Shown: in pieces, positions 7,262-26,273 of the stretch | Layout of the letters: each line of letters opens with the position of its first letter | Position numbering within the stretch: position 1 is the first letter of the stretch | Source of the DNA: a virus | Reading direction: 5' to 3' (one strand) | Virus genome (UHGV): UHGV-1376702 | Length of the DNA stretch: 44,254 nt | The notes under the pieces: generated by a model | The model's database searches: none | The model's input: the letters and a program-made list of their open reading frames with translations, nothing else | Told to the model about the DNA's origin: nothing | Position numbers and translations under genes: made by a program

Positions 7262-7723
7262 ATGTCTATGAACATCAAATATGACACAACATCCCCTAGC
7301 TGCTTGGTGTGGCTCAAGGGTAGGCGCGCCGGTGCTCCAGCGGGTACCCGCAACACTCGTGGCTACTGGGTGGTACAGGTATCTGGTAGAAAGATACAGG
7401 CACACCGCCTCATCTGGGAACTACACAACGGGCCTATTCCAGACGGATATGTGGTGGACCACATCAACCAAAACCCCAGTGACAACAGATTAGAGAACCT
7501 GCGCTTAGCTACGGTTAGCGAAAACAACTGTAACGCACGCAGGTCTAAGCGGGAACATCCTAGGGGTGTATACTACACTGGCACCTGCTGGCGCGGGGAG
7601 TTCTGGAAGGACGGTAAGCGTTACATGAAGAAGCACAGCTCCTACGAAGTTATCTGCAAGTGGGTACTAGAGAAACGTCAAGAGCAACACAAGGCCTTCA
7701 CCCCGGGGCATGTGTATACCTGA
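7262..7723 (+). CDS. HNH homing endonuclease
   Basis: 153 aa; HRLIWELHNGPIPDGYVVDHINQNPSDNRLENLRLAT matches the HNH_3-type motif of free-standing phage homing endonucleases; RBS AATGAGGA. Confidence 0.8.
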   Translation: MSMNIKYDTTSPSCLVWLKGRRAGAPAGTRNTRGYWVVQVSGRKIQAHRLIWELHNGPIPDGYVVDHINQNPSDNRLENLRLATVSENNCNARRSKREHPRGVYYTGTCWRGEFWKDGKRYMKKHSSYEVICKWVLEKRQEQHKAFTPGHVYT

Positions 7724-7810
7724 AACCAAAAATTATTATACTCACCCTTGGGCCTCCCTCACCCTCAACGCGCCCAATTGCCCCCATAGGGGGTGCCTAG
7801 CGTCAATTTA

Positions 7811-7821
7811 GGGGGGGGGGG
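7811..7821. repeat. G11 homopolymer tract
   Basis: Eleven consecutive G in the non-coding region. Confidence 0.9.
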
Positions 7822-7928
7822 CACTGGTGGGGCCTGCTAGTGCGCACTAGAGCGCCTCAGCGGGCCTGTGCTGCGCTCTAAGGCTATTGCCAGTGCTACC
7901 CTATGGCTATCACTGTGCGTTCACTAGG

Positions 7929-7972
7929 GCGCTTCCTGTGCGCTTCCTGTGCGCTTCCTGTGCGCTTCCTGT
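7929..7972. repeat. tandem direct repeat, 4 x 11 bp (GCGCTTCCTGT)
   Basis: Four perfect head-to-tail copies read directly from the sequence. Confidence 0.9.
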
Positions 7973-8240
7973 GGGCCATAGGGGCGTGCTCTGCCTTGCT
8001 TATTTTGTGCGCCTCAGTGGGCCTGCCTAGTGCCTGTCTAGTGCCTGCGCAGTGGGGCCATAGGGTATGCCTAGTGCTATCCCTAGTGTGCACTAGGCTA
8101 TCCACTGGCTATCCTTAGTGCTTTACATTGTGCTAATTATGTGCTACGCTGCGCGCTCCCCACTAGGGCGCACATCCACCACACCGCACTATCCAGCGCT
8201 ATCCCTTTGCTCTTACTTTCATTCGAAAGCTATTATGAAA

Positions 8241-8260
8241 TGATGTTACAGGAGTAGGAG
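8241..8260 (+). promoter_or_regulatory. conserved motif copy 1 (ATGTTACAGGAGTAGGAG); candidate phage-RNAP promoter
   Basis: One of three identical copies of a 17-19-nt sequence (others at about 29667 and 41572); this copy is intergenic near the putative genome left end. Confidence 0.35.
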
Positions 8261-8527
8261 GGTTTTAGGGCACTATATACACTACTTAATACTAGTCCTT
8301 ACTAGTCCCTACTAGGCACTCACTAGTATGGCCCTGTGCCTACGTAGTAGGCTGCCATAACTACATAGTCACCGCATCACTACGTTCCTTCACTTACGTT
8401 ACGTCACTACGTTCTGCTTTATGTAGTATTAGATAGTATTGGCTAGACGTGGCTAGTATTGGCTACAGCCAGTGTCAGCACAGTGCTATCCCTAGTGGCT
8501 ATCCCTATAATATATAAGGAGTTATAC

Positions 8528-9082
8528 ATGTTACCATCTAGTCGGGCTACGGCTAAAGCCACTGGTAGTACATACTACTACACAGGGAAGCACTGTAAGT
8601 ACCAGCACACGGCAAAGCGCCTCACCAGTTCAGGGGAGTGCTCCGAGTGCTTTAAGATTAGGAGTACCAGCCCAGCTACTAAGGAGCGTATGCGGGAGTA
8701 CCATAAGGTTTATCAGGTACGTAAGGCAGAGGCCTTGAGAGAGTACCGTAAGACACGCCGACCTAAGCACATTATGACAGAGGAGCAATTACAGCGTAAG
8801 GTTCGCCACAATGCGCGATACCGTGCTGCGCGTACTCAATCCGTACCCTCATGGTATGGCGAGTGGGATGAGTTTGTTATGTTGGAGGCTATCGCTTTAG
8901 CAGCCGAGAGGGCGGAGTGTACTGGCATAGCGTGGCATATTGACCATATGCTACCGCTAAAGGCTAAAGAGGTGTGCGGCTTACACTGTGCGGGGAACAT
9001 TCAGGTGATACCCGCAACGCTTAATACACATAAGTGTAACAGGCTGCTATTCACGGAGCCGTTGGAGTGGCTAAAGGCATAA
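8528..9082 (+). CDS. HNH endonuclease with N-terminal zinc ribbon
   Basis: Start refined to ATG 8528 (RBS AAGGAG, TATAAT just upstream); Cys-x-x-Cys pairs near the N-terminus; C-terminal HNH motif AWHIDHMLPLKAKEVCGLHCAGNIQVIPATLNTHKCN. Confidence 0.7.
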   Translation: MLPSSRATAKATGSTYYYTGKHCKYQHTAKRLTSSGECSECFKIRSTSPATKERMREYHKVYQVRKAEALREYRKTRRPKHIMTEEQLQRKVRHNARYRAARTQSVPSWYGEWDEFVMLEAIALAAERAECTGIAWHIDHMLPLKAKEVCGLHCAGNIQVIPATLNTHKCNRLLFTEPLEWLKA

Positions 9083-9088
9083 ACTTGA

Positions 9089-9127
9089 GGTAATACAGTA
9101 CTATAAATGCTGTATTACCTTTTTTTA
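9089..9127 (+). terminator. rho-independent terminator
   Basis: Perfect 10-bp stem GGTAATACAG / CTGTATTACC with an 11-nt loop followed by T7, directly after the HNH gene stop. Confidence 0.6.
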
Positions 9128-9263
9128 TAAAAAGTGCTTGCTTTTTTAAATCTGCTAGGTGTATATTTATCCCATCGAAAGCGATACGGTCTACCGGGTA
9201 GCTCTAGATTCCAGAGTCAACTGGATAAGTAGACAGCCTGATAAGTCATATGAAAAACAGGTA

Positions 9264-9292
9264 TTGACAATAGCAGTAAACGCTTTTATAGT
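9264..9292 (+). promoter_or_regulatory. sigma70-type promoter (TTGACA-N17-TATAGT)
   Basis: Perfect -35 hexamer, 17-bp spacer, 5/6 match at -10; predicted start near 9299-9300. A weaker candidate (TTGCTT-N18-TATATT) lies at about 9138-9167. Confidence 0.6.
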
Positions 9293-9541
9293 TTGAACCA
9301 TGTTGCGGAGCAGTGTAGCGCCTAAAGGTGCTCTGACCACTAACCCTAGATACATGATAGTAGTAAGCGTGCCGGACGTTATCACCGGGGTTCTGAGACA
9401 AACCACACTGTCGAGGCGAGAGCAGCTCGCTCCTCTGAATCGAGGGAACAAGGCGCGGAGAGTATCCCGCAAAGAGCATATAACATAGCGTAGCAGTAAC
9501 AAGGCTGCGCTAGATTATGTTCTCTGAGAGGTAAGAAGATT

Positions 9542-9739
9542 ATGCGCAAAGCAAAGCGTTTAGCTTTACGGCGGAATATGCAGTTATCACTGAATCCCAC
9601 CGACAACGTGCCACTCACTGTGAAGCCAAGTAAACAAGGCCTGAGCTGTGAGCACAGGGTGAGAGGTAAGCAAAAGCAACGTGCTGGCAGTAAACAACCT
9701 TCGGGGTGGTCTACTATGAATGCACAGTTCGGACACTAA
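9542..9739 (+). CDS. small basic protein (hypothetical)
   Basis: 65-aa ORF with RBS GAGAGGTAAG 5-9 nt upstream; very Lys/Arg-rich; coding status uncertain. Confidence 0.3.
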   Translation: MRKAKRLALRRNMQLSLNPTDNVPLTVKPSKQGLSCEHRVRGKQKQRAGSKQPSGWSTMNAQFGH

Positions 9740-9743
9740 TTAC

Positions 9744-9775
9744 AGCCTATAGCATCCTATGGGGTGCTATGTGAA
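9744..9775 (+). promoter_or_regulatory. conserved hairpin element, copy A
   Basis: AGCCTAT + 7-bp stem (AGCATCC/GGGTGCT, one G-U) with 4-nt loop + ATGTGAA; about 40 nt upstream of the start at 9815; second copy at 10533. Confidence 0.4.
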
Positions 9776-9814
9776 GTAATTCGTAAAGTAAACAACCAAT
9801 CAAAGGGGTGCATT

Positions 9815-10399
9815 ATGACTAATTCCACCAATTCAACAGGTAAAGTATTCAAGCTCACCGCTGCTGGCAGCATTCGTAAAGCGCTGGGCGACGTAGTGGA
9901 AGCAAAGCGTAACATCACTATCAGCGCGCTCTTCCACGGCCTGATTAGCAGCAACGTATCATGGGCTACGGATATGCAGCGTAGCGATGCCGCTGACTTC
10001 GATATGGTGCTGCGTACGCTGTTGCCTATCAAGCTCAACAAGGAGTCCGGCAAATATGAGTTCAACGCTAAGAAGTGCTATGTGTCGGCTGAAAAGCTGG
10101 GTATCGAACTGGACACTATGCGTCTGGACTACAAACAAGCTGACAAGCAAGGCCGCGAAGTAATCGTAGCTAGATTTTATAGCTCCTGTATGGCCCTGTA
10201 CGCCGCCGAAGCAGAGCAGGTGAAGAATGACGCACTGGATGCCGATACAGTGCGCCTGCAAGCGCTGGGGCGCGTTAAAAACGCTATTAAGAAGGCTAAA
10301 GAGACTGGCGTAAGCGATGCTGACCTCGTGTCTATGCTGGTATCGCAAGGCGTGGACGTACGCGCTGTACTGGACGCAACTTTGAAGGCAGCGGCATAA
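9815..10399 (+). CDS. hypothetical early protein
   Basis: Start refined to ATG 9815 (RBS AAAGGGG); 195 aa; no recognisable motif. Confidence 0.55.
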   Translation: MTNSTNSTGKVFKLTAAGSIRKALGDVVEAKRNITISALFHGLISSNVSWATDMQRSDAADFDMVLRTLLPIKLNKESGKYEFNAKKCYVSAEKLGIELDTMRLDYKQADKQGREVIVARFYSSCMALYAAEAEQVKNDALDADTVRLQALGRVKNAIKKAKETGVSDADLVSMLVSQGVDVRAVLDATLKAAA

Positions 10400-10532
10400 T
10401 TTATAAAGTTCCGGTTATCAAGTGGTGGGCCTTGTGCCCTGCGGCCAACGATGCCGACGCTTTCGATATCCCTGTGCGGGCAATAGCTCAAAAATGGGTG
10501 TACGAGGGATTGGGCGAGTATCTCTAGTGGCA

Positions 10533-10564
10533 AGCCTATAGCGTCCTACGGGACGCTATGTGAA
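10533..10564 (+). promoter_or_regulatory. conserved hairpin element, copy B
   Basis: AGCCTAT + perfect 7-bp stem (AGCGTCC/GGACGCT) with 4-nt loop + ATGTGAA; about 25 nt upstream of the start at 10589; compensatory A:T to G:C change relative to copy A. Confidence 0.4.
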
Positions 10565-10588
10565 TGCAACTGGCGTATGAGGTGGCAT

Positions 10589-10810
10589 ATGAAAGCAATA
10601 CTGGTTTATCCGGGTCATGAACTCTGGCCCGTGTGGTGCAATCGCAAGTACGACGAATACAACTACACTGTGGTTATATTCTCTGACAAAGACACCAATC
10701 AGGAATCCCCATTCGAATTTGTGGATACCTACACCGAAATGGCTGCCCGCACTGTGCTGGACGCCGTTAATCTTGGCATCATCACCGATTGGAGACAACT
10801 ATATGGTTAA
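10589..10810 (+). CDS. hypothetical small acidic early protein
   Basis: Start refined to ATG 10589 (RBS GAGGTGG); 73 aa, Asp/Glu-rich. Confidence 0.5.
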   Translation: MKAILVYPGHELWPVWCNRKYDEYNYTVVIFSDKDTNQESPFEFVDTYTEMAARTVLDAVNLGIITDWRQLYG

Positions 10811-11066
10811 TGTATTCAACATCATTGTGACCAGCGCTATGCTGGTGCTGGGCAACGACGTAAACAACCCAATCCCATACTGCACAGTGCAGTTGCAGCA
10901 ACCCGCAACGCAGGAACCGCAGCCGCGCCCTGAGTATGACCTCTTTGAAGACCCCGAGGGCGGCTGCAAAGAGCTAGGCGCGCGTATTCTTGCCGCGGTG
11001 CAGGAGCAGTACCCGGACGCCGCCGTTACGCTTACGGTGGACGGTAAGAGCAACAGCGATATTTGA
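10803..11066 (+). CDS. hypothetical small early protein
   Basis: In-frame ATG 10803 overlapping the previous stop (ATATGG); hydrophobic N-terminus then acidic Pro/Gln/Glu-rich region; the upstream part of track ORF 10617..11066 overlaps the previous gene out of frame. Confidence 0.45.
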   Translation: MVNVFNIIVTSAMLVLGNDVNNPIPYCTVQLQQPATQEPQPRPEYDLFEDPEGGCKELGARILAAVQEQYPDAAVTLTVDGKSNSDI

Positions 11067-11144
11067 GGTTGGGCATGCACGGAAAGAATCCTGAGACGCT
11101 GCTAAAGCTAGGCTGCACCCAACCACTCCTACTGGGAGGCTCAC

Positions 11145-11489
11145 ATGATGACGGTAGATGAAGCTGCTGTTTTCATGTGGAAGCTGCTGGAAACGCAGGG
11201 CAAGTGCGGGTGCCCTTGGGGAACATTCAAAGAGGTTCCTAATGAACTCAAGCAAATCATACCGGTCGAGCGCAGACTCCTCCGTGTTCGTAGGCAGGAC
11301 TCTACGGTGGTGCTCACAACCTATCGCGAGTATACAGAATCTGCCGCGCGGCAGTTGCAAGAGCACATTCAGTTCGATGTGGTTGCAGCACTGCTACGGT
11401 ACGGGTATCGTGGAGCATATACAAGATTTAGGGCGGCAGTACGGGCATATTATAAGCAAGCGCAGATCGCTGCATGGTACGCACGCTGA
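11145..11489 (+). CDS. hypothetical early protein
   Basis: 114 aa; RBS GGAGG before ATGATG; protein-like composition, unlike the overlapping frame. Confidence 0.5.
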   Translation: MMTVDEAAVFMWKLLETQGKCGCPWGTFKEVPNELKQIIPVERRLLRVRRQDSTVVLTTYREYTESAARQLQEHIQFDVVAALLRYGYRGAYTRFRAAVRAYYKQAQIAAWYAR

Positions 11490-14261: not shown

Positions 14262-14263
14262 TT

Positions 14264-15867: not shown

Positions 15868-16305
15868 TTGGACCTAATAGGTGATTGCATAGACCACGGG
15901 AGAAAGGGCAACCACAATGGGTATGGAGTAACCTCGTGGCCTGGAAACAGGAAACGCACAGCACTGAAACACAGGGTTGTGATGGCTAATAAATTAGGCG
16001 TCCCATTGGAGGCAATAAGCGGAAAGGTTGTCAGGCATAAGTGTGACAATCCCCGCTGTATAAACCCGGACCACTTAGAACTTGGCACTCAACTTGACAA
16101 CGTAGAAGATGCCAGAAAGAGGGGCCGGGTTTCTAGTGGCTCAAGACACTACAAGGCAACTGTTTCAGCGGACTTGATACAGTGGGTACGTGATGTGTAC
16201 GTAAAGCGCAGCAAAGAGTACAACCAGTACGCCTTAGCCAAGAGACTGGGAGTATCCCGCTCGTGTATAAACAACTGGCTCAACAACTACACTAGGGGTG
16301 GGTGA
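15868..16305 (+). CDS. HNH homing endonuclease
   Basis: 145 aa (TTG start after RBS AGGAGG); motifs CIDHG, HR, VRHKCDNPRCINPDHLELGT...N shared with four paralogues in this window. Confidence 0.8.
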   Translation: MDLIGDCIDHGRKGNHNGYGVTSWPGNRKRTALKHRVVMANKLGVPLEAISGKVVRHKCDNPRCINPDHLELGTQLDNVEDARKRGRVSSGSRHYKATVSADLIQWVRDVYVKRSKEYNQYALAKRLGVSRSCINNWLNNYTRGG

Positions 16306-17588
16306 GTATGGATTTAATAGTTGTGCGTGCGATGTGCACGCAGAAGGTTTGGAACCGACTGCGAGAGCAGATTCCTAAGTCGATGCTTGCGCCGGATACG
16401 TCGAACCTTCTGGACTGGGTGGGGCTGTACTGGAACACGTACCCGGAGCACCAGGAGGTGCAATGGGATGCGATGCAGAGCATGCTCAACCTCCGGGCGG
16501 GGCACCTATCCCGGGAAGAGCGGGTAATCATGGACGAGCTTATGCGGGGAGTACAAGCCGTGCCGCAGGATTCTGTGGTGGGGATTGTCCAGACCCTGAA
16601 TGAGCTGGCCTACAGCGGGGAGGTAGCAGCGCTGACGCAGCGCTACCAAGACGGTGAGGAGATTGATTACCTGCTGGAAATGAAGCACCTACAGCGCAAG
16701 TACGGTGACGGCGCTGCGGTGCATGATTCGCTGCTTGAATGGGAGAGCGGTAGTGTTGACGAAATACTTGCCGCGACTGACGAGAGCGGAGGTCTTAAAC
16801 TGGGCGTGTTCGAGCAACTCTCTAGCAACATCCGGGGCCTACGCGGCGGGGACTGCATCGCAGTGGCTGCCCCTGTGGACTCTGGTAAAACTAGCCTGCT
16901 TGCTGCTATTGCTGTGGACTTTGCTGAGCAGATGCAGCAGCAGCCGGAAGTATACGGGGACCGCCCGATTCTCTGGCTGGTTAACGAGGGTCCGGCGACG
17001 CGTACGGTGCCGAGGGTATATCAAGCGGCGCTGCACTGGACTCTGGCAGAGATTAAGGACAGGCACAGTAAGCAAGAGTTCGTGCCAGCCTACCTCAAGA
17101 AAGTAGGCAGGGCTGACCGGATTCGTGTTAAGGCTGCGCACTCCTTGACGATGGCGCAGATATCCACGCTCATGGAGGAGATGCGCCCTGCGGTAATCAT
17201 CATCGACATGGTGGCGAACATCCGTGGCGGCACTATGGAGACCGAGCACCAGAACCTCGAGGCGAAATGGCAGGAGCTGCGCATACTTGGGTGCGAGAAC
17301 GACTGCGCTATTGTAGGCACTATGCAGCTTTCACTCGAAGGTTACAACATGCTGTTCCCGCCGCTCACCGCTATGAAGCAGAGCAAGATTGGCGTACAGG
17401 GTGCCCTGGACTTGGCTATTATGATGGGATGCTTGGACAGAAACGAGCAGCCGCACATGCAAAACGTCCGTGGTATCAGTACTCCGAAGAACAAGATGGC
17501 ACTGTCTGGTAAAGAGTCGCTACTGCAATTCGAGGTGGGATTCGAGCCGGGTCGTTGCCGCTTTGACGAGGGCCAGATTAACCGGTGA
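16302..17588 (+). CDS. replicative DNA helicase (DnaB/T7 gp4-like)
   Basis: 428 aa; Walker A (VAAPVDSGKTSLL), Walker B-like (VIIIDMVANI). Confidence 0.8.
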   Translation: MSMDLIVVRAMCTQKVWNRLREQIPKSMLAPDTSNLLDWVGLYWNTYPEHQEVQWDAMQSMLNLRAGHLSREERVIMDELMRGVQAVPQDSVVGIVQTLNELAYSGEVAALTQRYQDGEEIDYLLEMKHLQRKYGDGAAVHDSLLEWESGSVDEILAATDESGGLKLGVFEQLSSNIRGLRGGDCIAVAAPVDSGKTSLLAAIAVDFAEQMQQQPEVYGDRPILWLVNEGPATRTVPRVYQAALHWTLAEIKDRHSKQEFVPAYLKKVGRADRIRVKAAHSLTMAQISTLMEEMRPAVIIIDMVANIRGGTMETEHQNLEAKWQELRILGCENDCAIVGTMQLSLEGYNMLFPPLTAMKQSKIGVQGALDLAIMMGCLDRNEQPHMQNVRGISTPKNKMALSGKESLLQFEVGFEPGRCRFDEGQINR

Positions 17589-17640: not shown

Positions 17641-17796
17641 ATGCTTAAACCGTCAGACATTAACTACCTCGATGAAGAGGTAATCAAGGCGTACGCTGCA
17701 TCTGCAGGTACTTTCCGTAAACAGTTTGCACTGGACAGCAGCCAGCTGATTGTGCATCTGGCGATTAATAAGGCTCGGAGGGCTAATTGGAAATGA
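17641..17796 (+). CDS. hypothetical small protein
   Basis: 51-aa ORF with strong RBS AGGAGG; its stop overlaps the ATG of the next HNH gene (ATGA). Confidence 0.35.
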   Translation: MLKPSDINYLDEEVIKAYAASAGTFRKQFALDSSQLIVHLAINKARRANWK

Positions 17797-18242
17797 CAGG
17801 TTGTATTGACCACGGACAGAAGGGAAGCACTTGCCGAGGAAAGGGCGCTGGGTATGGCCGCTCCAGATTTGACGGGAAGACAACTGGCAGCCACCGCAAA
17901 GCATACTGTGTAGCTCACAACTTGAAGCTGAGCGATATCGCGGGACTTGTAGTCCGGCATTCGTGCGACAATCCTCGGTGCATAAATCCGGAGCACCTGC
18001 TACTAGGGACTTCTAGCGATAATATGCAGGACCGAAATAAAGGTGCGCGTAATTTGCTGGGCAGCCGCAACCCTGCTGCCAGACTTACCCCAGAAGACGT
18101 GCACAGCATACGAGAAGCATACGCTGGCGGTGAGACCCAGGTATCTATAGCGAGACGCTTCGGGACAAGTCAAGGATACATATCTAATATCATAAAGGGG
18201 AGGGTATGGAATGAGCAGAAGCATCCTGATAACGGATTATGA
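17793..18242 (+). CDS. HNH homing endonuclease
   Basis: Motifs CIDHG, HR, VRHSCDNPRCINPEHLLLGT...N; track start 17787 is TTG, ATG at 17793 is more likely. Confidence 0.8.
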   Translation: MTGCIDHGQKGSTCRGKGAGYGRSRFDGKTTGSHRKAYCVAHNLKLSDIAGLVVRHSCDNPRCINPEHLLLGTSSDNMQDRNKGARNLLGSRNPAARLTPEDVHSIREAYAGGETQVSIARRFGTSQGYISNIIKGRVWNEQKHPDNGL

Positions 18243-20610
18243 GACGCAAAACCACCCATATTACGGTAGTGTTGCTTCCCCGTACTGTCCGGATAATTAC
18301 ATCGTAGAATCAGCGTGGCGTATTGACCGCACGCACGATGACGGTACGGTAGAAGTAGGCCCCGTAGAGAGTGTACGGTATAACAGTCGCGCGCACTTTG
18401 AAGCGGCACCTGTATCAGAATGGCTCCCAATACCAGCTGACTGTTGGCTGATTGTGGCTCACAACGCCGCATATGAGATTAGCTGGTTCCTAACCTTTGC
18501 GCGCGCCGAGTTTGAGGCCTTCCTAAAGCGGGGAGGTCGCGTATTCTGTACGATGCATTCTGAGTACATCGCCTCGGACTTTCAGAGCATGTATCCGTCG
18601 CTGGACGAGACGGCTCCTAAGTACGGTGGTACGCACAAAGTAGACGGGGTTAAGCTTCTGTGGGAGCAGGGTGTGCTAACTTCCCAGATTGACCCGATGC
18701 TGCTGCATGACTACCTGGTTAACGGGGACATCCCGAACACGGCCCTGTGCTTCTACGGCCAGTGCGCTACGTTCGCCCAGCGCAATCAGATGCAGTACGT
18801 GTGGGAGCGTATGGATGCCTTGCTGGCTTGGGCGTACTGCGAATGGTTCGGCCTGTTCGTTAATATGCCAATTGCACGCAAGAACCAGGAGGAGCAGGAG
18901 CAGCGCATCCGTGAGATTAAGCAGGAACTGCAGCAGTACATCCCGAAGGACTTACCAGAGACGCTAGATTTCAACTTCGGGTCGGACTTCCATATGTCAG
19001 CACTGGTGTACGGCGGGCCTATCAAGTACCGCAAGAAGGTGCCATATGACCCGCCGCAGTACGTCAAGGCCGACTTCTATAAGTACGAGGACGGAGAGGG
19101 TGCGCACACCTATATACCTGTACACGACACGCACATGCAAGAACTTCAAACGGAAGGCGGATGGTGGCGTGTAGTGACATATCGTGCGGGTAAGAACAAG
19201 GGGCTACCCAAAGTATTCCGCCTAGACACCGAGGAGGAGAAGCTAAAGTGGGAAGATGACCTTTACTTCTGCCCGGGCCTAGTGAACATACAGGAGCTGC
19301 CGGAAGTTATCCGGGAGAAGTATGCAGAGCGTGGAGAGTTCCGACAGGCGCGCACCATGCAGGACGGTACGCCAGTATACAGCACCAGCACTGACGCAAT
19401 GGAGGCGCTAGCCCGCCAAGGGTTCGAGTTCTGTAAGTTGGTGAATGAGCTGGCGGCGCTGGAGAAGGACACTGGAACTTACTACTTGCGTGAAGTTCTG
19501 GACGCAGAGGGTAAAGTCAAAGAGCGGAAGGGTATGTTACAGTACGTAATCCCTGAGCGTCCTGATGGTTCTGGCATCATACACCACCGACTGAATACAT
19601 GCGCCACCGTAACCGGGCGCCTGAGTAGCTCTAACCCGAACCTGCAGAACCTACCCCGACCGGATGAAGACGGGGATGGGGTAGCTAAATCCAAGGTGAA
19701 GCAGGTATTCACCAGCCGATTCGGGGATAACGGACGCATCACTGAGGTTGACTACTCGGCGCTGGAAGTGGTTATGTCCTGTGTGCATACGGGGGACACC
19801 AAACTACTGGGGCTGCTGCAGGGCGGCACGGATATGCACTGTTACCGCCTAGCTTTCCGCGAGGAACTGCCGTATGAAGAAGTGTATGAGCGCTGCCACA
19901 ACAAGAAGCACGAGCTGCATCCGCTTTGGAAGGCAATGCGTACAGGTATTAAGGCTCCTAGCTTCGCAGCCCAGTATGGCGCTACGGCTAAGGGGATTGC
20001 GTTTGCTACTGGATGTACGGTGGAATTCGCACAGGCTTTCTTGGACAACGAGGCTGCGCTGTTCCCGCAAACAATTGGCTTCCGCGCTGTTATCAAGGAA
20101 GAAGTAGAGCGCACCGGGGCAGCCGGGCGCATGTACCGCGAGCAGGCTGACGATGGCAGCTACCGAGTCTACCGCATCGGGACGTGGACTAGCCCAGCAG
20201 GTGCCCGCTATAGCTTCCGCCAGAAGGAGCAGTGGAAAGAGGTTGTGCCTGGGCAGCGTAAGCAGAAGGTAATGGACTACAAGGAAACAGAGATGGCTAA
20301 CTACTGGTGCCAGGGGGAAGCATTCTTCCTGATGGCGGTAGCCGCCGGTATGGTTCTGCGTGCACTCCTGGCCCGTGACTGGTTCGACAATCAGGTGTGC
20401 CTGATTACGAACGTGCACGATGCGTTGTATCTGGACAGCGCCAACCCGGAGGTTGGACGTGAGGCGAGCCTGCTGGTTAAGCAGTGCATGGAGGATGCAC
20501 CTAAGCGTATTCACCAGCTCTGGCCTAACTACGGCATCATTGGTGAGGTCCCGTTCCCAGCAGAGGCTGAGATGGGTACGAGTATGTACAGTAAGGAGAA
20601 GGTAGAATGA
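18211..20610 (+). CDS. DNA polymerase, family A (T7 gp5-like) with 3'-5' exonuclease domain
   Basis: 799 aa; exo motif ILITDYETQN; pol motif A (EVDYSALEVV), motif B (R..IKAPSFAAQYG), motif C (VHDALY); TGRLSSSNPNLQNLP. Confidence 0.9.
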   Translation: MSRSILITDYETQNHPYYGSVASPYCPDNYIVESAWRIDRTHDDGTVEVGPVESVRYNSRAHFEAAPVSEWLPIPADCWLIVAHNAAYEISWFLTFARAEFEAFLKRGGRVFCTMHSEYIASDFQSMYPSLDETAPKYGGTHKVDGVKLLWEQGVLTSQIDPMLLHDYLVNGDIPNTALCFYGQCATFAQRNQMQYVWERMDALLAWAYCEWFGLFVNMPIARKNQEEQEQRIREIKQELQQYIPKDLPETLDFNFGSDFHMSALVYGGPIKYRKKVPYDPPQYVKADFYKYEDGEGAHTYIPVHDTHMQELQTEGGWWRVVTYRAGKNKGLPKVFRLDTEEEKLKWEDDLYFCPGLVNIQELPEVIREKYAERGEFRQARTMQDGTPVYSTSTDAMEALARQGFEFCKLVNELAALEKDTGTYYLREVLDAEGKVKERKGMLQYVIPERPDGSGIIHHRLNTCATVTGRLSSSNPNLQNLPRPDEDGDGVAKSKVKQVFTSRFGDNGRITEVDYSALEVVMSCVHTGDTKLLGLLQGGTDMHCYRLAFREELPYEEVYERCHNKKHELHPLWKAMRTGIKAPSFAAQYGATAKGIAFATGCTVEFAQAFLDNEAALFPQTIGFRAVIKEEVERTGAAGRMYREQADDGSYRVYRIGTWTSPAGARYSFRQKEQWKEVVPGQRKQKVMDYKETEMANYWCQGEAFFLMAVAAGMVLRALLARDWFDNQVCLITNVHDALYLDSANPEVGREASLLVKQCMEDAPKRIHQLWPNYGIIGEVPFPAEAEMGTSMYSKEKVE

Positions 20611-20828
20611 GTATAAAGTCTGGCAGTGTTGTGGAGTTGATGGACCTGGGGCCTGAGCCGATAGACCCGCGGTATGCAGCATACTTCGCCCCGGGTACGA
20701 GGCACACGGTTATGTTCTTCGACCCGGTTACTGGGGAGATAGAACTAAGTTATCCTGGACTAGTAGTAAGTAGACCGGGGGATGGTGTTACCTTCTTCCC
20801 GGGGGAGTACAAGCTTATCGTGGAATAG
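20607..20828 (+). CDS. hypothetical small protein
   Basis: 73-aa ORF overlapping the DNA polymerase stop (ATGA). Confidence 0.4.
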   Translation: MSIKSGSVVELMDLGPEPIDPRYAAYFAPGTRHTVMFFDPVTGEIELSYPGLVVSRPGDGVTFFPGEYKLIVE

Positions 20829-20931
20829 TGATAGGTGGACCCTTGGGTGGTGTAGGGGGTTAGGGTAGCATGGAAATACACTGGGGTCAACTAAATAATT
20901 AAATAAAATTATTTGTTGACTCTAGCTTGAT

Positions 20932-20946
20932 TCTGTGATTCACAGA
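20932..20946. promoter_or_regulatory. perfect 15-bp palindrome TCTGTGA-T-TCACAGA (operator-like)
   Basis: Read directly; lies in the 160-bp intergenic region upstream of HNH gene 20990, next to a TTGACT hexamer and an A+T-rich tract. Confidence 0.3.
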
Positions 20947-20989
20947 GAATTAATGTGATACGAGTAGGAACAACACAAGAGGATACCGA

Positions 20990-21424
20990 ATGTCGATGTG
21001 TATTGACCACGGGTATAACAAATGCCTTAACAAGAACGGATACCGCCGGGCATGGTATAAGCCGACCAGGCGATTGGAGCTGCTGCATCGGGTGGTGTAT
21101 GCTGAGCATAACGGGCTGGATATAAGGGCGCTGGCTGGCCTGTCTGTTAGACATACCTGCGATAACCCCAGGTGCATTAACCCTAAGCACTTAGTATTGG
21201 GAACGCATATGGATAATATGCGGGACCGTGCAGAGCGCGGAAGGAACCCAGATGTGCGTGGGGATAGGAACCCAAAAGCGCAGTTAACTTGGGATGCTGT
21301 GCAGGATATCAGGGATAACTATATCCCATACAAGAAAGGTATGCGGCAACACTTTGCTAATAAGTACGGTGTAGGTGTACATGTAATTAGTGACGTAATA
21401 AGTAACAGGAGCTGGAATGCCTAA
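20990..21424 (+). CDS. HNH homing endonuclease
   Basis: 144 aa; RBS AAGAGGA; motifs CIDHG, HR, VRHTCDNPRCINPKHLVLGT...N. Confidence 0.8.
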   Translation: MSMCIDHGYNKCLNKNGYRRAWYKPTRRLELLHRVVYAEHNGLDIRALAGLSVRHTCDNPRCINPKHLVLGTHMDNMRDRAERGRNPDVRGDRNPKAQLTWDAVQDIRDNYIPYKKGMRQHFANKYGVGVHVISDVISNRSWNA

Positions 21425-22397
21425 GTTAAACACAATAAAGCTATTCACCAAAGAGCAACACATAGATATCTTGAGCAAGCACAGCTCTAACGTGGATGCT
21501 GCTGCCGCCTATAATAAGCTGGCGGGACTGGACGAGCCAGTGGTGTATCGACAGATGGTGAAGTACTGGCGCAGCATATTCCTAGACCACGCTGGGAGCA
21601 AGGGTAAGGCAATATCACACATGAAGGAGGCACTAAAGCTCATACAGCCCAGTCCCACTGATGACATCGGCAAAACCTTCGTGCCGGAAGTGTGCCACCG
21701 TATTCTCGTAGTTGGGGATTTGCATGCCCCCTATACGCACGTAGATGCTATGGCCTTCTTAGAATCTGTGCGAGACGCCTACTGTCCGGACATGGTTGTA
21801 CAGGTAGGCGACGAGACGGACGGCCACGCTATATCATTCCACGAAAGTAACCCGAACCTGGATAGCGCCGGGGTGGAGCTGGAGAAAGCTAAGCTCGTAC
21901 TGGAGGAGCTACATGAACTGTTCCCGAACCTATTGGTTTGCGATTCCAATCACGGCAGTCTGGTTTACCGCAGGGCGAAAGCTCACGGGCTACCAGTGCA
22001 ATTCATCAAGAAGTACCGAGATATACTTTTCCCTGAACATGGTGCCCCGGCGTGGTCTTGGGCTGACGCGTGGGTACTCAATACCCCACTTGGCCCGGTT
22101 AGATTCCAGCATCAAGTGTCGGGTGACTTCATGCTCAACGCTAGCCACGAAAGAACCAGCCTTGTCCTTGGTCACGAACATGGTCGCTTTGAGGTGCAAT
22201 ATGCAGCTAGCTCAACAGCTTTGTACTTTGGTGCGTATGCTGGGTGTCTGATTGACCGTAAGAGCATGGCCTTTGCTTACGGCAGACTCACCCGCAAGAA
22301 ACCAATCCTGGGTGTGATGGTAATCACCGAGGGTTGCCCGCAGTTAATTCCGATGCTGCTTGACGACGATGGTCGTTGGGTTGGTCGTACTAAATAA
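21417..22397 (+). CDS. calcineurin-like metallophosphoesterase
   Basis: 326 aa; GDLH ... GDETD ... CDSNHG motifs in canonical order (GDxH, GDxxD, GNH). Confidence 0.6.
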   Translation: MPKLNTIKLFTKEQHIDILSKHSSNVDAAAAYNKLAGLDEPVVYRQMVKYWRSIFLDHAGSKGKAISHMKEALKLIQPSPTDDIGKTFVPEVCHRILVVGDLHAPYTHVDAMAFLESVRDAYCPDMVVQVGDETDGHAISFHESNPNLDSAGVELEKAKLVLEELHELFPNLLVCDSNHGSLVYRRAKAHGLPVQFIKKYRDILFPEHGAPAWSWADAWVLNTPLGPVRFQHQVSGDFMLNASHERTSLVLGHEHGRFEVQYAASSTALYFGAYAGCLIDRKSMAFAYGRLTRKKPILGVMVITEGCPQLIPMLLDDDGRWVGRTK

Positions 22398-22407
22398 CAC
22401 AGAGGTG

Positions 22408-22578: not shown

Positions 22579-22629
22579 GCCCTGCATCTGCACGTAAATA
22601 TCATTCAAACTAAACGAGGAAGTAATTAT

Positions 22630-23418
22630 ATGACGATGAATGCACTGGACACCCTGAACTCCCTGGTAGCGGCTGCTATTGAAACGCAGGATGTTGATAT
22701 GACTGAAACCGCACAGGGCGGTGCGTATGAGGACGCGCTGCTGCCGAAGGGTGAATACTACGGCTACTTCACCGAGTACGTAGAAATCGGTAAGCGCCTG
22801 CCGACTAAGGGTGGCAAGCCGACCGGTAAGCCCGCAGTAGCTAACGTACGCATCGGCATTGTAGTGTTCGGTCCTAACGGCGAAGTGAAGCGTATCCGCC
22901 CGTTCCCGATGGCTATCAGTAACTTTGAGCGCGCAGGCTTCAAGAAGTTCTTCGACAAGCTCAACTACGACAATAGCATTAAGCATGCAGCACAGCGTCT
23001 GGGCCAGGCCTTCACCTTCCCGATTGATGAGCACACCAGCGCCGCGGGCAAGAAGTCCAACATCGTGGACCTGTCCGGTATCCGCCCGATTCCGAAATTC
23101 GACCCGAACACTGGCGAGCCTATCAAGATGCCTGCCATGGATGCCTCTGAGATTAAGCTGTTCCTGTGGAACAACCCAACCAAAGAGACCTGGGATAGCC
23201 TGCACATCGAAGGCACCTTCGACGATGGTAAGAGCAAGAACTGGATTCAGGAGGATATGTACAAGGCTGTAGACTTCCCTGGCAGTGCTCTGGATATTCT
23301 GCTGAACGCTGGCTCGGTTCCTAGTCCGGCAGCTATGCAGGCACCCGCAGCCCCGGCTGCACCAGTGGCCCCTGCAGCCCCTGTGGCGCCAGCAGCACCC
23401 GCCGCACCTCAAGCCTAA
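22630..23418 (+). CDS. hypothetical protein with Pro/Ala-repeat C-terminal tail
   Basis: 262 aa; RBS GAGGAAG; C-terminus APAAPAAPVAPAAPVAPAAPAAPQA. Confidence 0.5.
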   Translation: MTMNALDTLNSLVAAAIETQDVDMTETAQGGAYEDALLPKGEYYGYFTEYVEIGKRLPTKGGKPTGKPAVANVRIGIVVFGPNGEVKRIRPFPMAISNFERAGFKKFFDKLNYDNSIKHAAQRLGQAFTFPIDEHTSAAGKKSNIVDLSGIRPIPKFDPNTGEPIKMPAMDASEIKLFLWNNPTKETWDSLHIEGTFDDGKSKNWIQEDMYKAVDFPGSALDILLNAGSVPSPAAMQAPAAPAAPVAPAAPVAPAAPAAPQA

Positions 23419-23471
23419 TCAACCCTAACCTAAACTAATACGGCCCCTCCTAGGGGCCTTAGAGGAAGCCT

Positions 23472-23726
23472 ATGAGCATCATCAAGATTCTCATCAAACT
23501 CCTGAGCGCAGCCTACACAGCAGAAGCTAAACGCGCCGATGCCAAAGTGCAGTTTAACGAGCAGTTGTCAGTTAAATTCGCAGACGACGCAGTGCGTCTG
23601 GCCGCTCAATCCGAGGCGCGCGTAGAGGCATCCAAGCATAGCAAAGAGTTAGCCGAGGCGTGCGCTTGCCATGCTGATAACCTGCGCGCTAAGCGTGGTG
23701 AAGTAGCTAACTTCCTGGAGGTATAA
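23472..23726 (+). CDS. hypothetical protein (hydrophobic N-terminus)
   Basis: 84-aa ORF with RBS GAGGAAG. Confidence 0.4.
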   Translation: MSIIKILIKLLSAAYTAEAKRADAKVQFNEQLSVKFADDAVRLAAQSEARVEASKHSKELAEACACHADNLRAKRGEVANFLEV

Positions 23727-24005
23727 ATGCGCATAATCACATGGGCCAAAGAACAGTACGCTGTGTTTCTGCTTCTGCGTGCACAGCGTTTGCAGAAGCG
23801 AGCAAACGACTGGCACTGGGCAGCTAATTCTCACGCACACAGGGCAAGCCTTCTGGGTGCCGAGATTAGCGCACACCGCTATCACTTGACTCGCCAGTGC
23901 GCCAAGTCCCGACGCCGTGCATACGCCCTGGGTGCAGAGGCTACGGCCACTGAGACCAAAGCCCACAATTTCATTTCAAAACACAAATTGAAAGGATTTG
24001 ACTAA
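23727..24005 (+). CDS. hypothetical basic protein
   Basis: 92-aa ORF directly abutting the previous stop; Arg/His/Lys-rich. Confidence 0.4.
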   Translation: MRIITWAKEQYAVFLLLRAQRLQKRANDWHWAANSHAHRASLLGAEISAHRYHLTRQCAKSRRRAYALGAEATATETKAHNFISKHKLKGFD

Positions 24006-24379
24006 TGGACAAAGTACTAGACGCATACAAGAAACTGGTTCTGGCTGTAGGTTACGTGAACTGTAGCGCCGTTCAAGGTTTCGACAATGGTGACCAGCTC
24101 GGCGCTGTGTACGATGCTCTGGACAAGCTGGCGGCCCTGTACGGCATGGACCTGGAGTTGGCTGCTACCGCCTTCAAGGAGCACAATGACCTGGCGGCAC
24201 ATGCCGATAAGTTACGGGGTGATGACCTAGTGCTTATCCGCATTGTGGGTACCCTAAGCATCGGGCTGGCGGAGATTGGTTCCTGCATCTACGACGTAGA
24301 CCAGAGCCTGCGTACCACGGAAGTAATCGGGGACATGCTTGGCACCGTGTTGGTGCTATCTGAACTGGAGGGTATATAA
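24005..24379 (+). CDS. hypothetical protein
   Basis: 124-aa ORF; start overlaps previous stop. Confidence 0.45.
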   Translation: MDKVLDAYKKLVLAVGYVNCSAVQGFDNGDQLGAVYDALDKLAALYGMDLELAATAFKEHNDLAAHADKLRGDDLVLIRIVGTLSIGLAEIGSCIYDVDQSLRTTEVIGDMLGTVLVLSELEGI

Positions 24380-24540
24380 TGCGTAAATTTATATCCTACA
24401 TAATTTCAGTCCCAGCACTGGTACTACTTGCAATCAGCTTGATGCTAATGGCGCTGGCGCTCAGTGTAGCCGGAGGCTCTAAGGGCGTGGCTATGCTGGG
24501 CCGTGCAATCCATGCTTTTACTGACCACTTAAAGGTGTAG
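24379..24540 (+). CDS. small membrane protein (about 53 aa)
   Basis: Not in the ORF track (under 60 aa); ATG after GGAGGG; single hydrophobic helix ISVPALVLLAISLMLMALALSVA. Confidence 0.3.
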   Translation: MRKFISYIISVPALVLLAISLMLMALALSVAGGSKGVAMLGRAIHAFTDHLKV

Positions 24541-24543
24541 AGA

Positions 24544-24706
24544 ATGCGTAACTTCTTTGCAAAATCATTTTACTTCCTGTTAGTAGCCCCGCTAGTGCCT
24601 GTAGCTATCCTGTGCTGGGCATTTGAGAAGGTAGAAAACAGTCAGGCGCTGACCGCCTGGGAATCCTGGGCGCGTAAGTTGACCAAGAAGGTTACGGGGG
24701 TCTGAT
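24544..24706 (+). CDS. small membrane protein (about 53 aa)
   Basis: Not in the ORF track; hydrophobic segment FYFLLVAPLVPVAILCWAF; stop overlaps the exonuclease start. Confidence 0.3.
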
Positions 24707-25673
24707 GATTATCAACGGGGTTGACTTGTCCCAGCTCGGGGAGCAGTTAGCTCCGCAGAACTCTGGGAAGATTCTGCTGTACGACGCGGATTTCACAGTT
24801 TATAAATCTGCTGCTACAGTGAAACGTTTGGATACCGCGATACGCCGCTTCTATCAGCTGGTGCTTGAGGACATGTTCCTGGTCGGCTGCTCAGAAGCAG
24901 TGGCGTATCTGACGCCTACGGGGTGTGCTAAGTGCCTGCGCTGGCACCTGCCTACGGCTAAGCCGTACCAAGGGAACCGCAATAAGCGTCAGGAGCTGCC
25001 ACTCAAGGCACCGTTGAAGCGGCACCTGATTGAGAACCCGGACCAGTATTCTGAGCATGGCATACAAGTGGTAAGCAGTGACTACTTTGAGGCCGACGAC
25101 CTATTTGTAATGGATTCGTACAGCTTCGGGGGCCGGGGAATCCTGATGTCACAGGACAAGGATTCTTGGCTCAGCCCTATGGCTCGGTTCGATATCCCTA
25201 CCGGAACCGTGTGGCCTGCCTTGGATAACCCATTCGGCTGGATTAAGTGGGATGATACCCAGGCTATGCCGGTACGAGCGCATGGCACTAAGTTCTTCTG
25301 GTGGCAAATGCTAGCAGGAGATGACGCAGATAACGTCAAAGGCATCACATTGCTTGATGGAAAGCTCTGTGGGAAGCGAACGGCCTTTGATGCTATCAAC
25401 CCTATTACCTCAGAGCAGGACGCCGCAGAATTCGTTGTAGCGGCCTATGCTCGAAACAACCAAGACGTACTCGCAGAGGCAGAATGCCTGTGGCTGAGGC
25501 GCTCCCAATCAGATTCAGCGTACCTGTATCTGATGTCACTGTTGACTACTCCCAGTCTGCGTGACTGGGTGCATTCTCTGCACGAGTACCATAAACAGCA
25601 CATACAGTGGATACAGGAGCACCCAGACAATGGCGAAGATGTCTGCGAAGGAGATGAGCCTGCGGGCGATTGA
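24705..25673 (+). CDS. 5'-3' exonuclease (T7 gp6 / FEN-like)
   Basis: 322 aa; acidic clusters in gp6-like order (LLYDADF, EADDLFVMDSY, SQDKD, GDDADNVKGIT); located after DNA polymerase. Confidence 0.65.
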   Translation: MIINGVDLSQLGEQLAPQNSGKILLYDADFTVYKSAATVKRLDTAIRRFYQLVLEDMFLVGCSEAVAYLTPTGCAKCLRWHLPTAKPYQGNRNKRQELPLKAPLKRHLIENPDQYSEHGIQVVSSDYFEADDLFVMDSYSFGGRGILMSQDKDSWLSPMARFDIPTGTVWPALDNPFGWIKWDDTQAMPVRAHGTKFFWWQMLAGDDADNVKGITLLDGKLCGKRTAFDAINPITSEQDAAEFVVAAYARNNQDVLAEAECLWLRRSQSDSAYLYLMSLLTTPSLRDWVHSLHEYHKQHIQWIQEHPDNGEDVCEGDEPAGD

Positions 25674-25830
25674 GTTATACTACGAGGGGAAACACGATGA
25701 ACTTGAAACTATTCTGGATGCGCTGCGTGAACGAGCACCCAAAACACATCGAAGAACGGTTGAGCATTTGGATTCTCTCATTCACGACAATGCTATGCTG
25801 GATGTAGTAGGGGAGATTCAGGTATGGTAA
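25630..25830 (+). CDS. hypothetical small protein
   Basis: In-frame ATG about 25630 with RBS AGGAGC; overlaps the exonuclease 3' end out of frame; stop overlaps the next HNH start. Confidence 0.3.
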   Translation: MAKMSAKEMSLRAIELYYEGKHDELETILDALRERAPKTHRRTVEHLDSLIHDNAMLDVVGEIQVW

Positions 25831-26273
25831 TGAACACACCTTGTATAGACCACGGTTGCAAAGGCATGGGCCTAGGCTACGCCACTGCTTGGTTTAGGGT
25901 GAACGGGGTTCGGAAGAGCACCACCAGGCACCGGATTGTATTCTATGCGGCACACGGATACTTCCCGGAGGTCGTAGAGCATGTATGCAACAACCCGCGC
26001 TGTATAAACGTGGAACATCTACGTGCAGGTACACATAAAAGTAACGCAGAATACAAGCACGCATGTGGGCGCGGTAATATAGAGGCGGCCACTAGGAAGG
26101 GCACGGATAATGGACGCGCTAAACTGGACGACTCCTTAGTGCGGTATCTCCGACAGATGTACGTGCCTAACGACCGAGAGTGGGGTGCGTCCGCTATAGC
26201 TAGGAGGTTAAATATGGGCGTTTCTAGTACACACAGAATGCTAACGGGGGCAGCATGGCGGCACGTCGTATAA
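25824..26273 (+). CDS. HNH homing endonuclease
   Basis: 149 aa; motifs CIDHG, HR, VCNNPRCINVEHLRAGT; same paralogue family. Confidence 0.75.
   Translation: MVMNTPCIDHGCKGMGLGYATAWFRVNGVRKSTTRHRIVFYAAHGYFPEVVEHVCNNPRCINVEHLRAGTHKSNAEYKHACGRGNIEAATRKGTDNGRAKLDDSLVRYLRQMYVPNDREWGASAIARRLNMGVSSTHRMLTGAAWRHVV

Follow-up and report, generated by a model that had tools for sequence, protein, structure and literature searches.

Intron-encoded nicking endonucleases of the HNH_3 type (PF13392), such as I-HmuI, are known from the Bacillus phages SPO1 and SP82, and the gene for I-HmuI sits inside that of DNA polymerase, in a group I intron. The genes described here share the Pfam catalytic domain of I-HmuI and a C-terminal DNA-binding module, and one of them (7262) has the classical DHxxxxxxxNxxxNL arrangement; however, they are free-standing, and four paralogues add a Cys/His zinc-loop. 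Small free-standing HNH ORFs are also present in the DNA-metabolism region of T7, another member of the Autographiviridae. The initial annotation had held that the load found here was higher than that of the canonical T7 gene set, yet T7 is not free of such genes, as the 20990 protein is 33% identical to T7 gp7.7 over 97% of its length and 37% identical to gp2.8 over half its length, and the 7262 protein matches a further T7 HNH gene, probably gene 3.8. The two systems differ in insertion sites, in subfamily (here Slopekvirinae) and in copy number, with six copies here versus at least three homologous ORFs in T7 records.

The free-standing homing genes of T4 (seg and mob, including SegF, SegG and MobE) have been reviewed previously (PMC2988022, PMC2790892). 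Like them, the genes reported here are optional endonuclease ORFs placed between conserved essential genes and patchily distributed among relatives, with differing endonuclease genes sharing one intergenic slot and flanking markers that may be co-converted (marker exclusion). The T4 seg genes are of the GIY-YIG type, whereas the putative homing genes described here are of the HNH_3 type and reside in a 44-kb podovirus of the T7 supergroup; furthermore, unlike seg and mob, three of the four paralogues open with a start codon taken over from the gene that follows, and the fourth begins 9 nt upstream of that codon. In the "HEG islands" and HEG neighbourhoods of ICP1 and other phages, homing-endonuclease genes were shown to cluster beside essential genes and at the boundaries of genetic exchange (Barth, Dunham & Seed 2023, PMC10448857), and for the HNH endonucleases of Skunavirus marker exclusion was demonstrated (Yu et al. 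2025, PMC12724721). As in those phages, HNH genes are enriched here beside DNA polymerase and other essential genes and at sequence-exchange boundaries, and vary in number and location within one genus. The genus and host are different, and start-codon capture and quantified one-sided tracts are described here for Drulisvirus only.

The stretch of DNA analysed (44,254 nt, hereafter the window) represents the complete genome, circularly permuted, of a KP34-like Drulisvirus (Autographiviridae) of Klebsiella, and Klebsiella Drulisvirus phages share its gene order at 90-95% nucleotide identity. All six ORFs that had been singled out as HNH genes (at 7262, 8528, 15868, 17793, 20990 and 25824) were confirmed on the + strand. 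Five are clear HNH genes, probably for homing endonucleases, here named HNH_A to HNH_E in order of position, and 8528 (gene Z) is a probable sixth nuclease gene. Together they occupy about 2.8 kb of the 44.25-kb genome (6.3%), and the suggested density of roughly 1 kb per 7 kb is reached only within the 19-kb interval that holds them, not genome-wide. Iterated profiles made from 130 HNH ORFs of Drulisvirus, which would miss unrelated nuclease families, detected no further HNH genes in the window. In 47 near-complete relatives the number of HNH genes per genome ranged from 0 to 6 with a median of 3, so that a load of six is at the top of the range and high for the genus, yet not unique. Homing endonucleases were previously found to differ between Drulisvirus isolates (PMC7013548, PMC9119126). 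The paper describing the genus 'Kp34likevirus' nowhere mentions endonucleases (PMC4411677). The features of the window are listed in Table 1.

Table 1. Endonuclease genes, repeats, regulatory-like signals and linked downstream tracts in the window
Feature	Coordinates	Strand	Basis
HNH_A cassette, left flanking imperfect direct repeat (38 nt)	7211..7248	.	Alignment to HNH-less relatives
HNH_A, free-standing I-HmuI-type HNH_3 endonuclease gene	7262..7723	+	Pfam HNH_3 9.6e-23, phrog_99 6.5e-47
HNH_A cassette, right flanking imperfect direct repeat (38 nt)	7705..7742	.	29/38 identical to left copy
Terminator-like hairpin (9087-9121) and sigma-70-like promoter TTGACA-17-TATAGT (9264-9292)	9087..9292	+	Consensus scans only
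HNH_B, zinc-loop HNH_3 with C-terminal helix-turn-helix	15868..16305	+	Pfam HNH_3 1.6e-10, HTH_23
Diverged/recoded helicase 5' tract, linked to HNH_B	16302..16400	+	Identity to HNH-less alleles
HNH_C, paralogue on captured RBS and ATG-ACA start of DNAP	17793..18242	+	Pfam HNH_3 3.3e-07
Diverged DNAP 5' tract (~350 nt), linked to HNH_C	18211..18560	+	Identity to HNH-less alleles
HNH_D, paralogue before metallophosphoesterase gene	20990..21424	+	Pfam HNH_3 2.1e-09, zf-His_Me_endon 28.5 bits
Metallophosphoesterase gene, whole allele diverged, linked to HNH_D	21417..22397	+	Identity to HNH-less alleles
HNH_E, paralogue on captured RBS and ATG-GTA start of endonuclease VII	25824..26273	+	Pfam HNH_3 1.1e-11
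Endonuclease VII, core gene for a Holliday-junction resolvase and no homing gene	26255..26677	+	Pfam Endonuclease_7 1.4e-12

The assignment of the five HNH genes was borne out by Pfam, as all of them scored above the gathering cut-off of HNH_3 (24.8 bits), with 80 bits for 7262, 40.8 for 15868, 30.3 for 17787/17793, 37.3 for 20990 and 44.5 for 25824, and HNH endonuclease families of the PHROGs collection were matched at 1e-17 to 1e-47. The motifs initially described (CIDHG, HR and a DNPRCINP-type element) proved accurate for the four paralogues HNH_B to HNH_E, which carry CIDHG, HR and V(R/E)HxC(D/N)NPRCINxxHLxxGT, with a slight deviation in the 25824 protein (EHVCNNPRCINVEHL); the 7262 protein has the classical form VDHINQNPSDNRLENL. 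In all five proteins the residues H57, N61 and N78 (numbered as in the 15868 protein) and the upstream HR motif are invariant; from what is known of the HNH_3 family, these three residues presumably have catalytic or metal-binding roles. The four paralogues have a C-terminal helix-turn-helix and in addition a Cys/His zinc-loop, the latter with weak matches to zf-His_Me_endon, and the 20990 protein gave no match to PDB sequences. All five ORFs are intact, with full-length orthologues in other phages that are 84-100% identical. As had been proposed, the paralogues are diverged from one another (30-43% identity), occupy separate slots and are each linked to a downstream tract of their own, which fits several independent acquisitions.

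The comparison with relatives lacking the genes, which the initial annotation had called for, located the insertion junctions and showed the genes to be sporadic. In megablast searches of related phages the gene plus its flanks was present in 12 of 249 records for 15868, 27 of 260 for 17793, 17 of 261 for 20990 and 13 of 249 for 25824; in the remaining records the flanks were joined without the HNH gene, and the slot lengths were bimodal. Each of the six genes occurs in about 5-10% of some 250 related GenBank phages, and for all six, presence/absence polymorphism was found at the same locus among close relatives. None is thus a core gene, and the possibility that they are conserved components at fixed positions in all relatives does not hold, since only a small minority carries each of them. 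The closest relative, RCIP0044, has only HNH_A and HNH_D, which points to a fast turnover of HNH genes. The insertion slots used by HNH genes in Drulisvirus number at least 20, and in other relatives HNH genes of unrelated classes occupy the slots seen here. The HNH genes are stand-alone, with full-length neighbouring ORFs that abut them or overlap by 0-32 nt; no reading frame is interrupted, and the layout of the ORFs shows no intron or intein context. Judged from these sequence comparisons, all six genes are optional, putatively selfish inserts that come and go among relatives.

The position of the inserts relative to their neighbours is precise. The four paralogues lie at, or no more than 9 nt from, the start codon of the genes for helicase, DNA polymerase (DNAP), phosphoesterase and endonuclease VII, and the junctions show a captured start codon or ribosome-binding site (RBS) together with short imperfect duplications. 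HNH_B, HNH_C and HNH_E open with the RBS and the initial codons (one to four) of helicase, DNAP and endonuclease VII, respectively. At its 3' end each of HNH_B to HNH_E supplies the displaced gene with a new ribosome site and a recoded start, and this essential gene would thereby still be expressed. The insertion point of HNH_B is in the opening codons of the helicase gene. HNH-less alleles have the sequence ...GAAGGAGGTTTAA TTGGACCTAATAG TAGTT..., with a helicase starting LDLIVV; in the window this RBS and TTGGACCTAATAG form the beginning of HNH_B, and a recoded ATGGATTTAATAG restarts the helicase at 16308. The displaced start of DNAP (18211) lies within the 3' end of HNH_C, with an overlap of 32 nt, and HNH_E overlaps that of endonuclease VII (26255) by 19 nt. 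HNH_D sits 9 nt before the start of the phosphoesterase gene, and its overlap with the new start (21417) is 8 nt; it is 100% identical in RCIP0044 and 90% identical to gp21 of KpV71, there labelled 'endonuclease'.

HNH_A has the tail-spike gene (5211-7166) on one side and the natural end of the genome or terminal repeat (~7758) on the other. HNH_A-less relatives have a single copy of the repeat that flanks the cassette, their alignment to the window skipping from 7248 to 7705, and the right copy encodes the final HNH_A residues, PGHVYT*. Orthologues were found in 27 phage records at 80% or higher amino acid identity, among them a 99.3% identical protein of phage Bp5 labelled 'putative HNH endonuclease'. 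A packaging-associated HNH of the HK97 gp74 type was considered and rejected, as the terminase genes (1244-3402) have no adjacent HNH gene and all six genes are sporadic.

Sequence divergence around the inserts is one-sided. In pairwise global alignments, and with the same pattern in a fast MAFFT multiple alignment, identity in the upstream flanks mostly stays at ~85-100% as far as the junction, with lower values of 75-84% in the short variable gene that precedes HNH_D, and the downstream tracts are 45-87% identical to HNH-less alleles. In the helicase gene identity to HNH-less alleles is 76% over the first 50 nt, 87% over the first 100 nt and 95% further on, and the first bin is 97% identical in loci with an orthologous HNH_B. 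The DNAP tract is 45-68% identical to HNH-less alleles, rising to ~90% beyond 350 nt, and 99-100% identical in the five loci with an orthologous HNH_C (linkage 5/5 vs 0/56). For the phosphoesterase the corresponding identities are 55-85% without and 82-97% with an orthologous HNH_D (4/4 vs 0/55 at an 85% threshold). Beside HNH_E, the first ~350 nt of the endonuclease VII gene are 52-69% identical to HNH-less alleles, followed by 97%; the protein is 63% identical to that of RCIP0044, as compared to 98.7% for the RNA polymerase. Linkage is complete for HNH_C and HNH_D and looser for HNH_B and HNH_E, the last being loose because the endonuclease VII allele type of the window (81-84% identity) occurs in four loci without HNH_E. 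As comparative evidence, the linked tracts are consistent with co-conversion of downstream sequence together with the endonuclease gene.

Our favoured explanation, to which we assign a probability of roughly 0.8, is that the HNH_3 genes are free-standing, selfish and dispensable homing-endonuclease genes that would move by intron-less homing with marker exclusion. Upon co-infection with a relative lacking a given HNH gene, the endonuclease would nick or cut that relative's DNA near the empty site, most likely in the 5' part of the essential gene immediately downstream. Recombinational repair from the HNH-bearing genome would then copy in the HNH gene and the adjacent tract, and the diverged tract would represent a cleavage-resistant allele that travels with it. 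We found no published report of cleavage, nicking or unidirectional inheritance for any Drulisvirus HNH, and the diverged tracts could also have arisen from ordinary mosaic recombination at gene boundaries, without cutting there. Drulisvirus genomes are indeed highly mosaic, with variable small genes and alternative alleles (for instance the gene after endonuclease VII and the early region), and this mosaicism, like the occurrence of the endonuclease VII allele type without HNH_E at some loci, would suit inactive or decaying HNH genes that are passive passengers of recombination, their tracts merely marking the donor lineage. We consider this unlikely, since decaying passengers would not be expected to have five intact ORFs with invariant catalytic residues and full-length, closely similar orthologues in other phages, nor would they account for the recurrence of unrelated HNH classes in the same slots beside essential genes, the complete linkage of HNH_C and HNH_D to their tracts or breakpoints exactly at start codons that come with engineered re-initiation signals. 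Intact ORFs, recurring slots, complete linkage and start-codon breakpoints make selection on the element itself hard to avoid.

More improbable still is that the nucleases have been domesticated for phage exclusion, for degradation of host or rival DNA (especially gene Z) or as a packaging cofactor resembling HK97 gp74. It is true that gene Z lies in the early region with terminator-like and promoter-like signals of its own, that HNH_A is located at the genome end near the packaging region, and that homing endonucleases mediate competition between co-infecting phages through marker exclusion (PMC12724721, PMC2988022). Nevertheless, each gene is missing from at least 90% of close relatives infecting the same host species, and therefore none of the six provides a needed function; nor does any HNH gene adjoin the terminase genes. 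As competition and homing are not mutually exclusive, domestication would be an added benefit more than an alternative to selfish homing.

Gene Z was initially described as a zinc-ribbon HNH and as the first early gene. The ribbon (CxxC) and a conserved DH..N..N motif are present in its protein, but Pfam, NCBIfam and PDB sequences gave no match, and profile-profile and fold searches did not bear out an HNH domain, so that the designation rests on the motif and a PHROG label. That label, recombination endonuclease VII, was rejected, as the protein has no PF02945 match and BLASTP against the endonuclease VII of the window gave E=6.9. Counted from the left end, gene Z is the second ORF and not strictly the first, being preceded by a 71-aa ORF (7903-8118) that is the counterpart of KpV71 gp01. 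Orthologues at 60% or higher identity were found in 16 records. The hairpin and promoter-like signal lie directly 3' of gene Z, inside a segment (~8508-9361) in whose place most relatives have other sequence, a replacement and not a clean insertion, and positions ~9206-9283 match the early-promoter region of T3/T7-type phages at an identity of roughly 90%. Gene Z is probably a mobile nuclease cassette with its own putative terminator and promoter.

A broader and tentative proposal, which we regard as possible rather than probable, joins these observations: the paralogues may form a specialised class of start-codon-capturing cassettes, each exploiting the translation-initiation region of an essential replication gene and carrying a self-immune, recoded 5' segment of it, that drives mosaicism of the replication module, and gene Z may found a new nuclease family. 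If so, a genome with six elements would be a dominant donor that overwrites the replisome alleles of co-infecting relatives, homing endonucleases would be the chief force behind mosaicism in this module of Drulisvirus, and the gene Z family (zinc ribbon plus DH-N-N motif) would stand outside Pfam, NCBIfam and solved structures.

The six-gene load itself is an ordinary case of a well-described phenomenon, and the type of element is already known. Cutting is predicted in HNH-less relatives at the 5' ends of four genes, those for helicase, DNA polymerase, phosphoesterase and endonuclease VII, and RCIP0044, which lacks four of the six genes, provides a natural test partner. Drulisvirus phages are in wide use as candidates for the treatment of Klebsiella pneumoniae, and near-identical isolates differ in gene content mainly through their HNH genes. 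When phages are combined in cocktails or meet in mixed infections, these genes could bias recombination, leading to changed replisome alleles.

All six ORFs that the initial annotation had read as HNH endonuclease genes were found to be present, and its observation was confirmed with corrections. Five of them score above the curated Pfam HNH_3 cut-off of 24.8 bits, and in PHROGs they fall into HNH-endonuclease families (1e-17 to 1e-47). As had been proposed, the four paralogues HNH_B to HNH_E have the motifs CIDHG, HR and V(R/E)HxC(D/N)NPRCINxxHLxxGT in common; they show a pairwise identity of 30-43% and weak Pfam matches to zf-His_Me_endon (zinc-loop), and in all but HNH_D a C-terminal helix-turn-helix profile was matched. 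The motif of HNH_A has the classical I-HmuI-like form, and H57, N61, N78 and the HR motif are invariant across all five HNH_3 proteins. Iterated profiles from about 130 Drulisvirus HNH ORFs identified no further HNH genes in the window.

Confirmed and probable nuclease genes of the window, their occurrence with both flanks (megablast records) and the divergence of the gene downstream from HNH-less alleles
Gene	Position	Pfam HNH_3 (bits)	Records with both flanks	Downstream gene	Restart	Divergent tract	Identity in tract	Identity beyond
HNH_A	7262	80
Gene 8528	8528-9082
HNH_B	15868	40.8	12/249	helicase	16308	first ~100 nt	76% and 87%	~95%
HNH_C	17787/17793	30.3	27/260	DNA polymerase	18211	first ~350 nt	45-68%	~90%
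HNH_D	20990	37.3	17/261	metallophosphoesterase	21417	whole gene	55-85%	
HNH_E	25824	44.5	13/249	endonuclease VII	26255	first ~350 nt	52-69%	97%

The sixth gene, 8528, is a less certain case, probably an HNH-like nuclease: the ORF exists, but searches of Pfam, NCBIfam and PDB sequences gave no match, and profile comparison showed no similarity to the HNH_3 set. C38, C41, D139, H140, N157 and N166 are invariant among 17 usable homologues. It matches phrog_1035 (3e-22), labelled "endonuclease VII"; the protein has no similarity to the true endonuclease VII of the genome. Its orthologues in GenBank phages are annotated as "hypothetical protein", and the family lies outside Pfam coverage. Nor is it the first early gene, as had been stated: counted from the left end it comes second, ORF 7903-8118 preceding it. 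In place of the segment carrying it (about 8508-9361), relatives have about 380-390 nt of different sequence. Downstream of the gene come a terminator-like hairpin and then a sigma-70-like promoter (TTGACA-17-TATAGT, 9264-9292). This promoter with the sequence upstream of it (9206-9292) resembles the early (A-promoter) region of T3, phiYe-F10 and many T7-like phages of Klebsiella, Escherichia and Yersinia, with about 88-92% identity across 65-80 nt around position 400-630 of those phages. They belong to a different subfamily from Drulisvirus, and the promoter module seems to be one that the two groups share or have exchanged.

The window is a complete, circularly permuted Klebsiella phage genome of the genus Drulisvirus (KP34-like; Autographiviridae, Slopekvirinae). 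When 20 kb of it served as query, 418 phage records matched, the top ones at 90-95% identity being Klebsiella phages RCIP0044, RCIP0106, KpV71, F19, KpV41 and Pone, and the annotated genomes of KpV71 and K1PH164C1 have the same gene order. Since the internal virion protein gene (1,253 codons) runs off the right edge of the window and resumes at position 1 (40830-44254 and 1-273), the sequence is a circularised assembly whose starting point is arbitrary; comparison with KpV71 places the natural left end at about 7758. Every real gene lies on the + strand. Just past the natural end, in the terminal-repeat or early non-coding region, tandem 11-nt repeats (GCGCTTCCTGT, about 3.5 copies) and recurring CCTAGTGC-type motifs occupy 7929-7983 and 8019-8132.

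Core genes would be expected in all relatives, and each of the six was found in a minority of records. In a gene-plus-flank megablast of HNH_B to HNH_E against 50,697 phage records, most of the records that did not hold the gene with both flanks had the two flanks joined or another HNH gene between them. Orthologues of HNH_A (at least 80%) and of gene 8528 (at least 60%) were recovered by tblastn in 27 and 16 records, and 59 IMG/VR Drulisvirus loci centred on DNA polymerase showed bimodal slot lengths and scattered orthologues. RCIP0044, the closest relative, carries only HNH_A (84% amino acid identity) and HNH_D (100%), the other four being missing. This patchy occurrence, together with the two of six in RCIP0044, indicates that none of the six is core, and supports the interpretation of the initial annotation.

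Among the 50 genomes with a complete peptidase-to-RNA-polymerase module (49 relatives and the window), 0, 1, 2, 3, 4 and 5 HNH genes per module were counted in 7, 14, 14, 8, 5 and 2 genomes, the window being one of the five with four. For whole genomes, 50 IMG/VR contigs were rebuilt from three overlapping locus sets, K1PH164C1 was added, and contigs with more than about 2.5 kb uncovered were left out, giving 47 near-complete relatives. Zero to six HNH genes occurred in 6, 8, 6, 13, 11, 2 and 1 of these (median 3), so that the window, with six, is at the top of the range and equalled by one relative; all such counts are lower bounds, as the search covered these HNH families alone. The earlier estimate of 1 kb per 7 kb holds within the 19-kb interval only, the six genes occupying about 2.8 kb of 44.25 kb genome-wide. 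T7, which had served as a contrast, is not free of such genes: its gp7.7 and gp2.8 are homologous to the paralogues and a further T7 HNH gene to HNH_A. At least 20 distinct HNH slots exist in the genus, and one slot can hold unrelated HNH classes in different relatives.

Other inserts were also seen. RCIP0106 (OR532900.1, 17440-19797) is 99.8% identical to window 20250-22150 yet has about 456 extra bases, suggesting an additional insert adjoining HNH_D, possibly another HNH gene. The terminase large-subunit gene, uninterrupted in the window (1546-3402), is split at residue 190/191 or 399/400 in several Drulisvirus relatives (L106, L110 and L118-L122) by an insert of about 780-800 nt. In L106 the insert (about 10570-11350) holds a ~170-aa ORF (MSKYTVGAKFKNRQG...VYGVGYIGSG...) unrecognised by the HNH profiles used here; an intron, or a homing element of some other class, is the probable explanation.

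The insertion points could be read straight off the sequence. HNH-less relatives have GAAGGAGGTTTAA-TTGGACCTAATAG-TAGTT as the helicase start (LDLIVV); HNH_B opens on this ribosome site and the 13 nt TTGGACCTAATAG, and the helicase restarts after the HNH_B stop (16305) via recoded ATGGATTTAATAG. HNH_C likewise starts on the ribosome site and ATG-ACA of DNA polymerase, which restarts 32 nt within the HNH_C end with a changed N-terminus, and HNH_E on the ribosome site and ATG-GTA of endonuclease VII, which overlaps it by 19 nt. HNH_D begins 9 nt before the former start of the phosphoesterase gene, and the restarted gene overlaps it by 8 nt. On either side of the HNH_A cassette lies one copy of a 38-nt imperfect direct repeat (7211-7248 and 7705-7742, 29/38 identical), of which HNH-less relatives have just one.

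When the window was aligned pairwise with 57-61 relatives, the divergence proved one-sided. Upstream flanks of HNH_B, C and E are about 85-100% identical to HNH-less alleles up to the junction, and the short variable gene upstream of HNH_D 75-84%; downstream tracts are 82-100% identical in loci with the orthologous HNH gene. Linkage of gene and tract is complete for HNH_C (5/5 versus 0/56) and, at an 85% threshold, for HNH_D (4/4 versus 0/55), and looser for HNH_B and HNH_E. Between the window and RCIP0044, endonuclease VII is only 63% identical at the protein level and RNA polymerase 98.7%. Directly downstream of the HNH_E cassette, the position of a DUF3310 gene (26674-27051; Pfam 4.8e-21), which follows endonuclease VII, is an alternative-allele hotspot, many relatives having a "nucleotide kinase" or "polynucleotide kinase" there, and many megablast matches end where endonuclease VII ends.

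Domain identity, patchy distribution, sites of insertion and linked tracts are demonstrated by the sequences. From them we infer that the endonucleases would cleave the downstream gene of HNH-less genomes in its 5' portion, that repair off an HNH-bearing genome would copy the HNH gene with its tract, and that the diverged tract would protect the carrier from its own enzyme. These steps make up the model of intron-less homing and marker exclusion established for the T4 seg and mob genes (PMC2988022, PMC2790892). It agrees with the general placement of phage homing-endonuclease genes next to essential genes and exchange boundaries (PMC10448857), and with marker exclusion by HNH endonucleases as shown in Skunavirus (PMC12724721). 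That the HNH genes are passive hitch-hikers on ordinary mosaic recombination seems less likely, as does their domestication for a competitive or early-nuclease role.

The phenomenon is already known: in GenBank phages, five of the six genes have orthologues that carry an HNH endonuclease annotation; five HNH ORFs were described in phage BUCT86 (PMC9119126), and homing endonucleases were noted as differences between near-identical Drulisvirus isolates (PMC7013548). What is added here is modest: a grammar of start-codon capture and quantified linked tracts, with which the predicted cut sites become testable.
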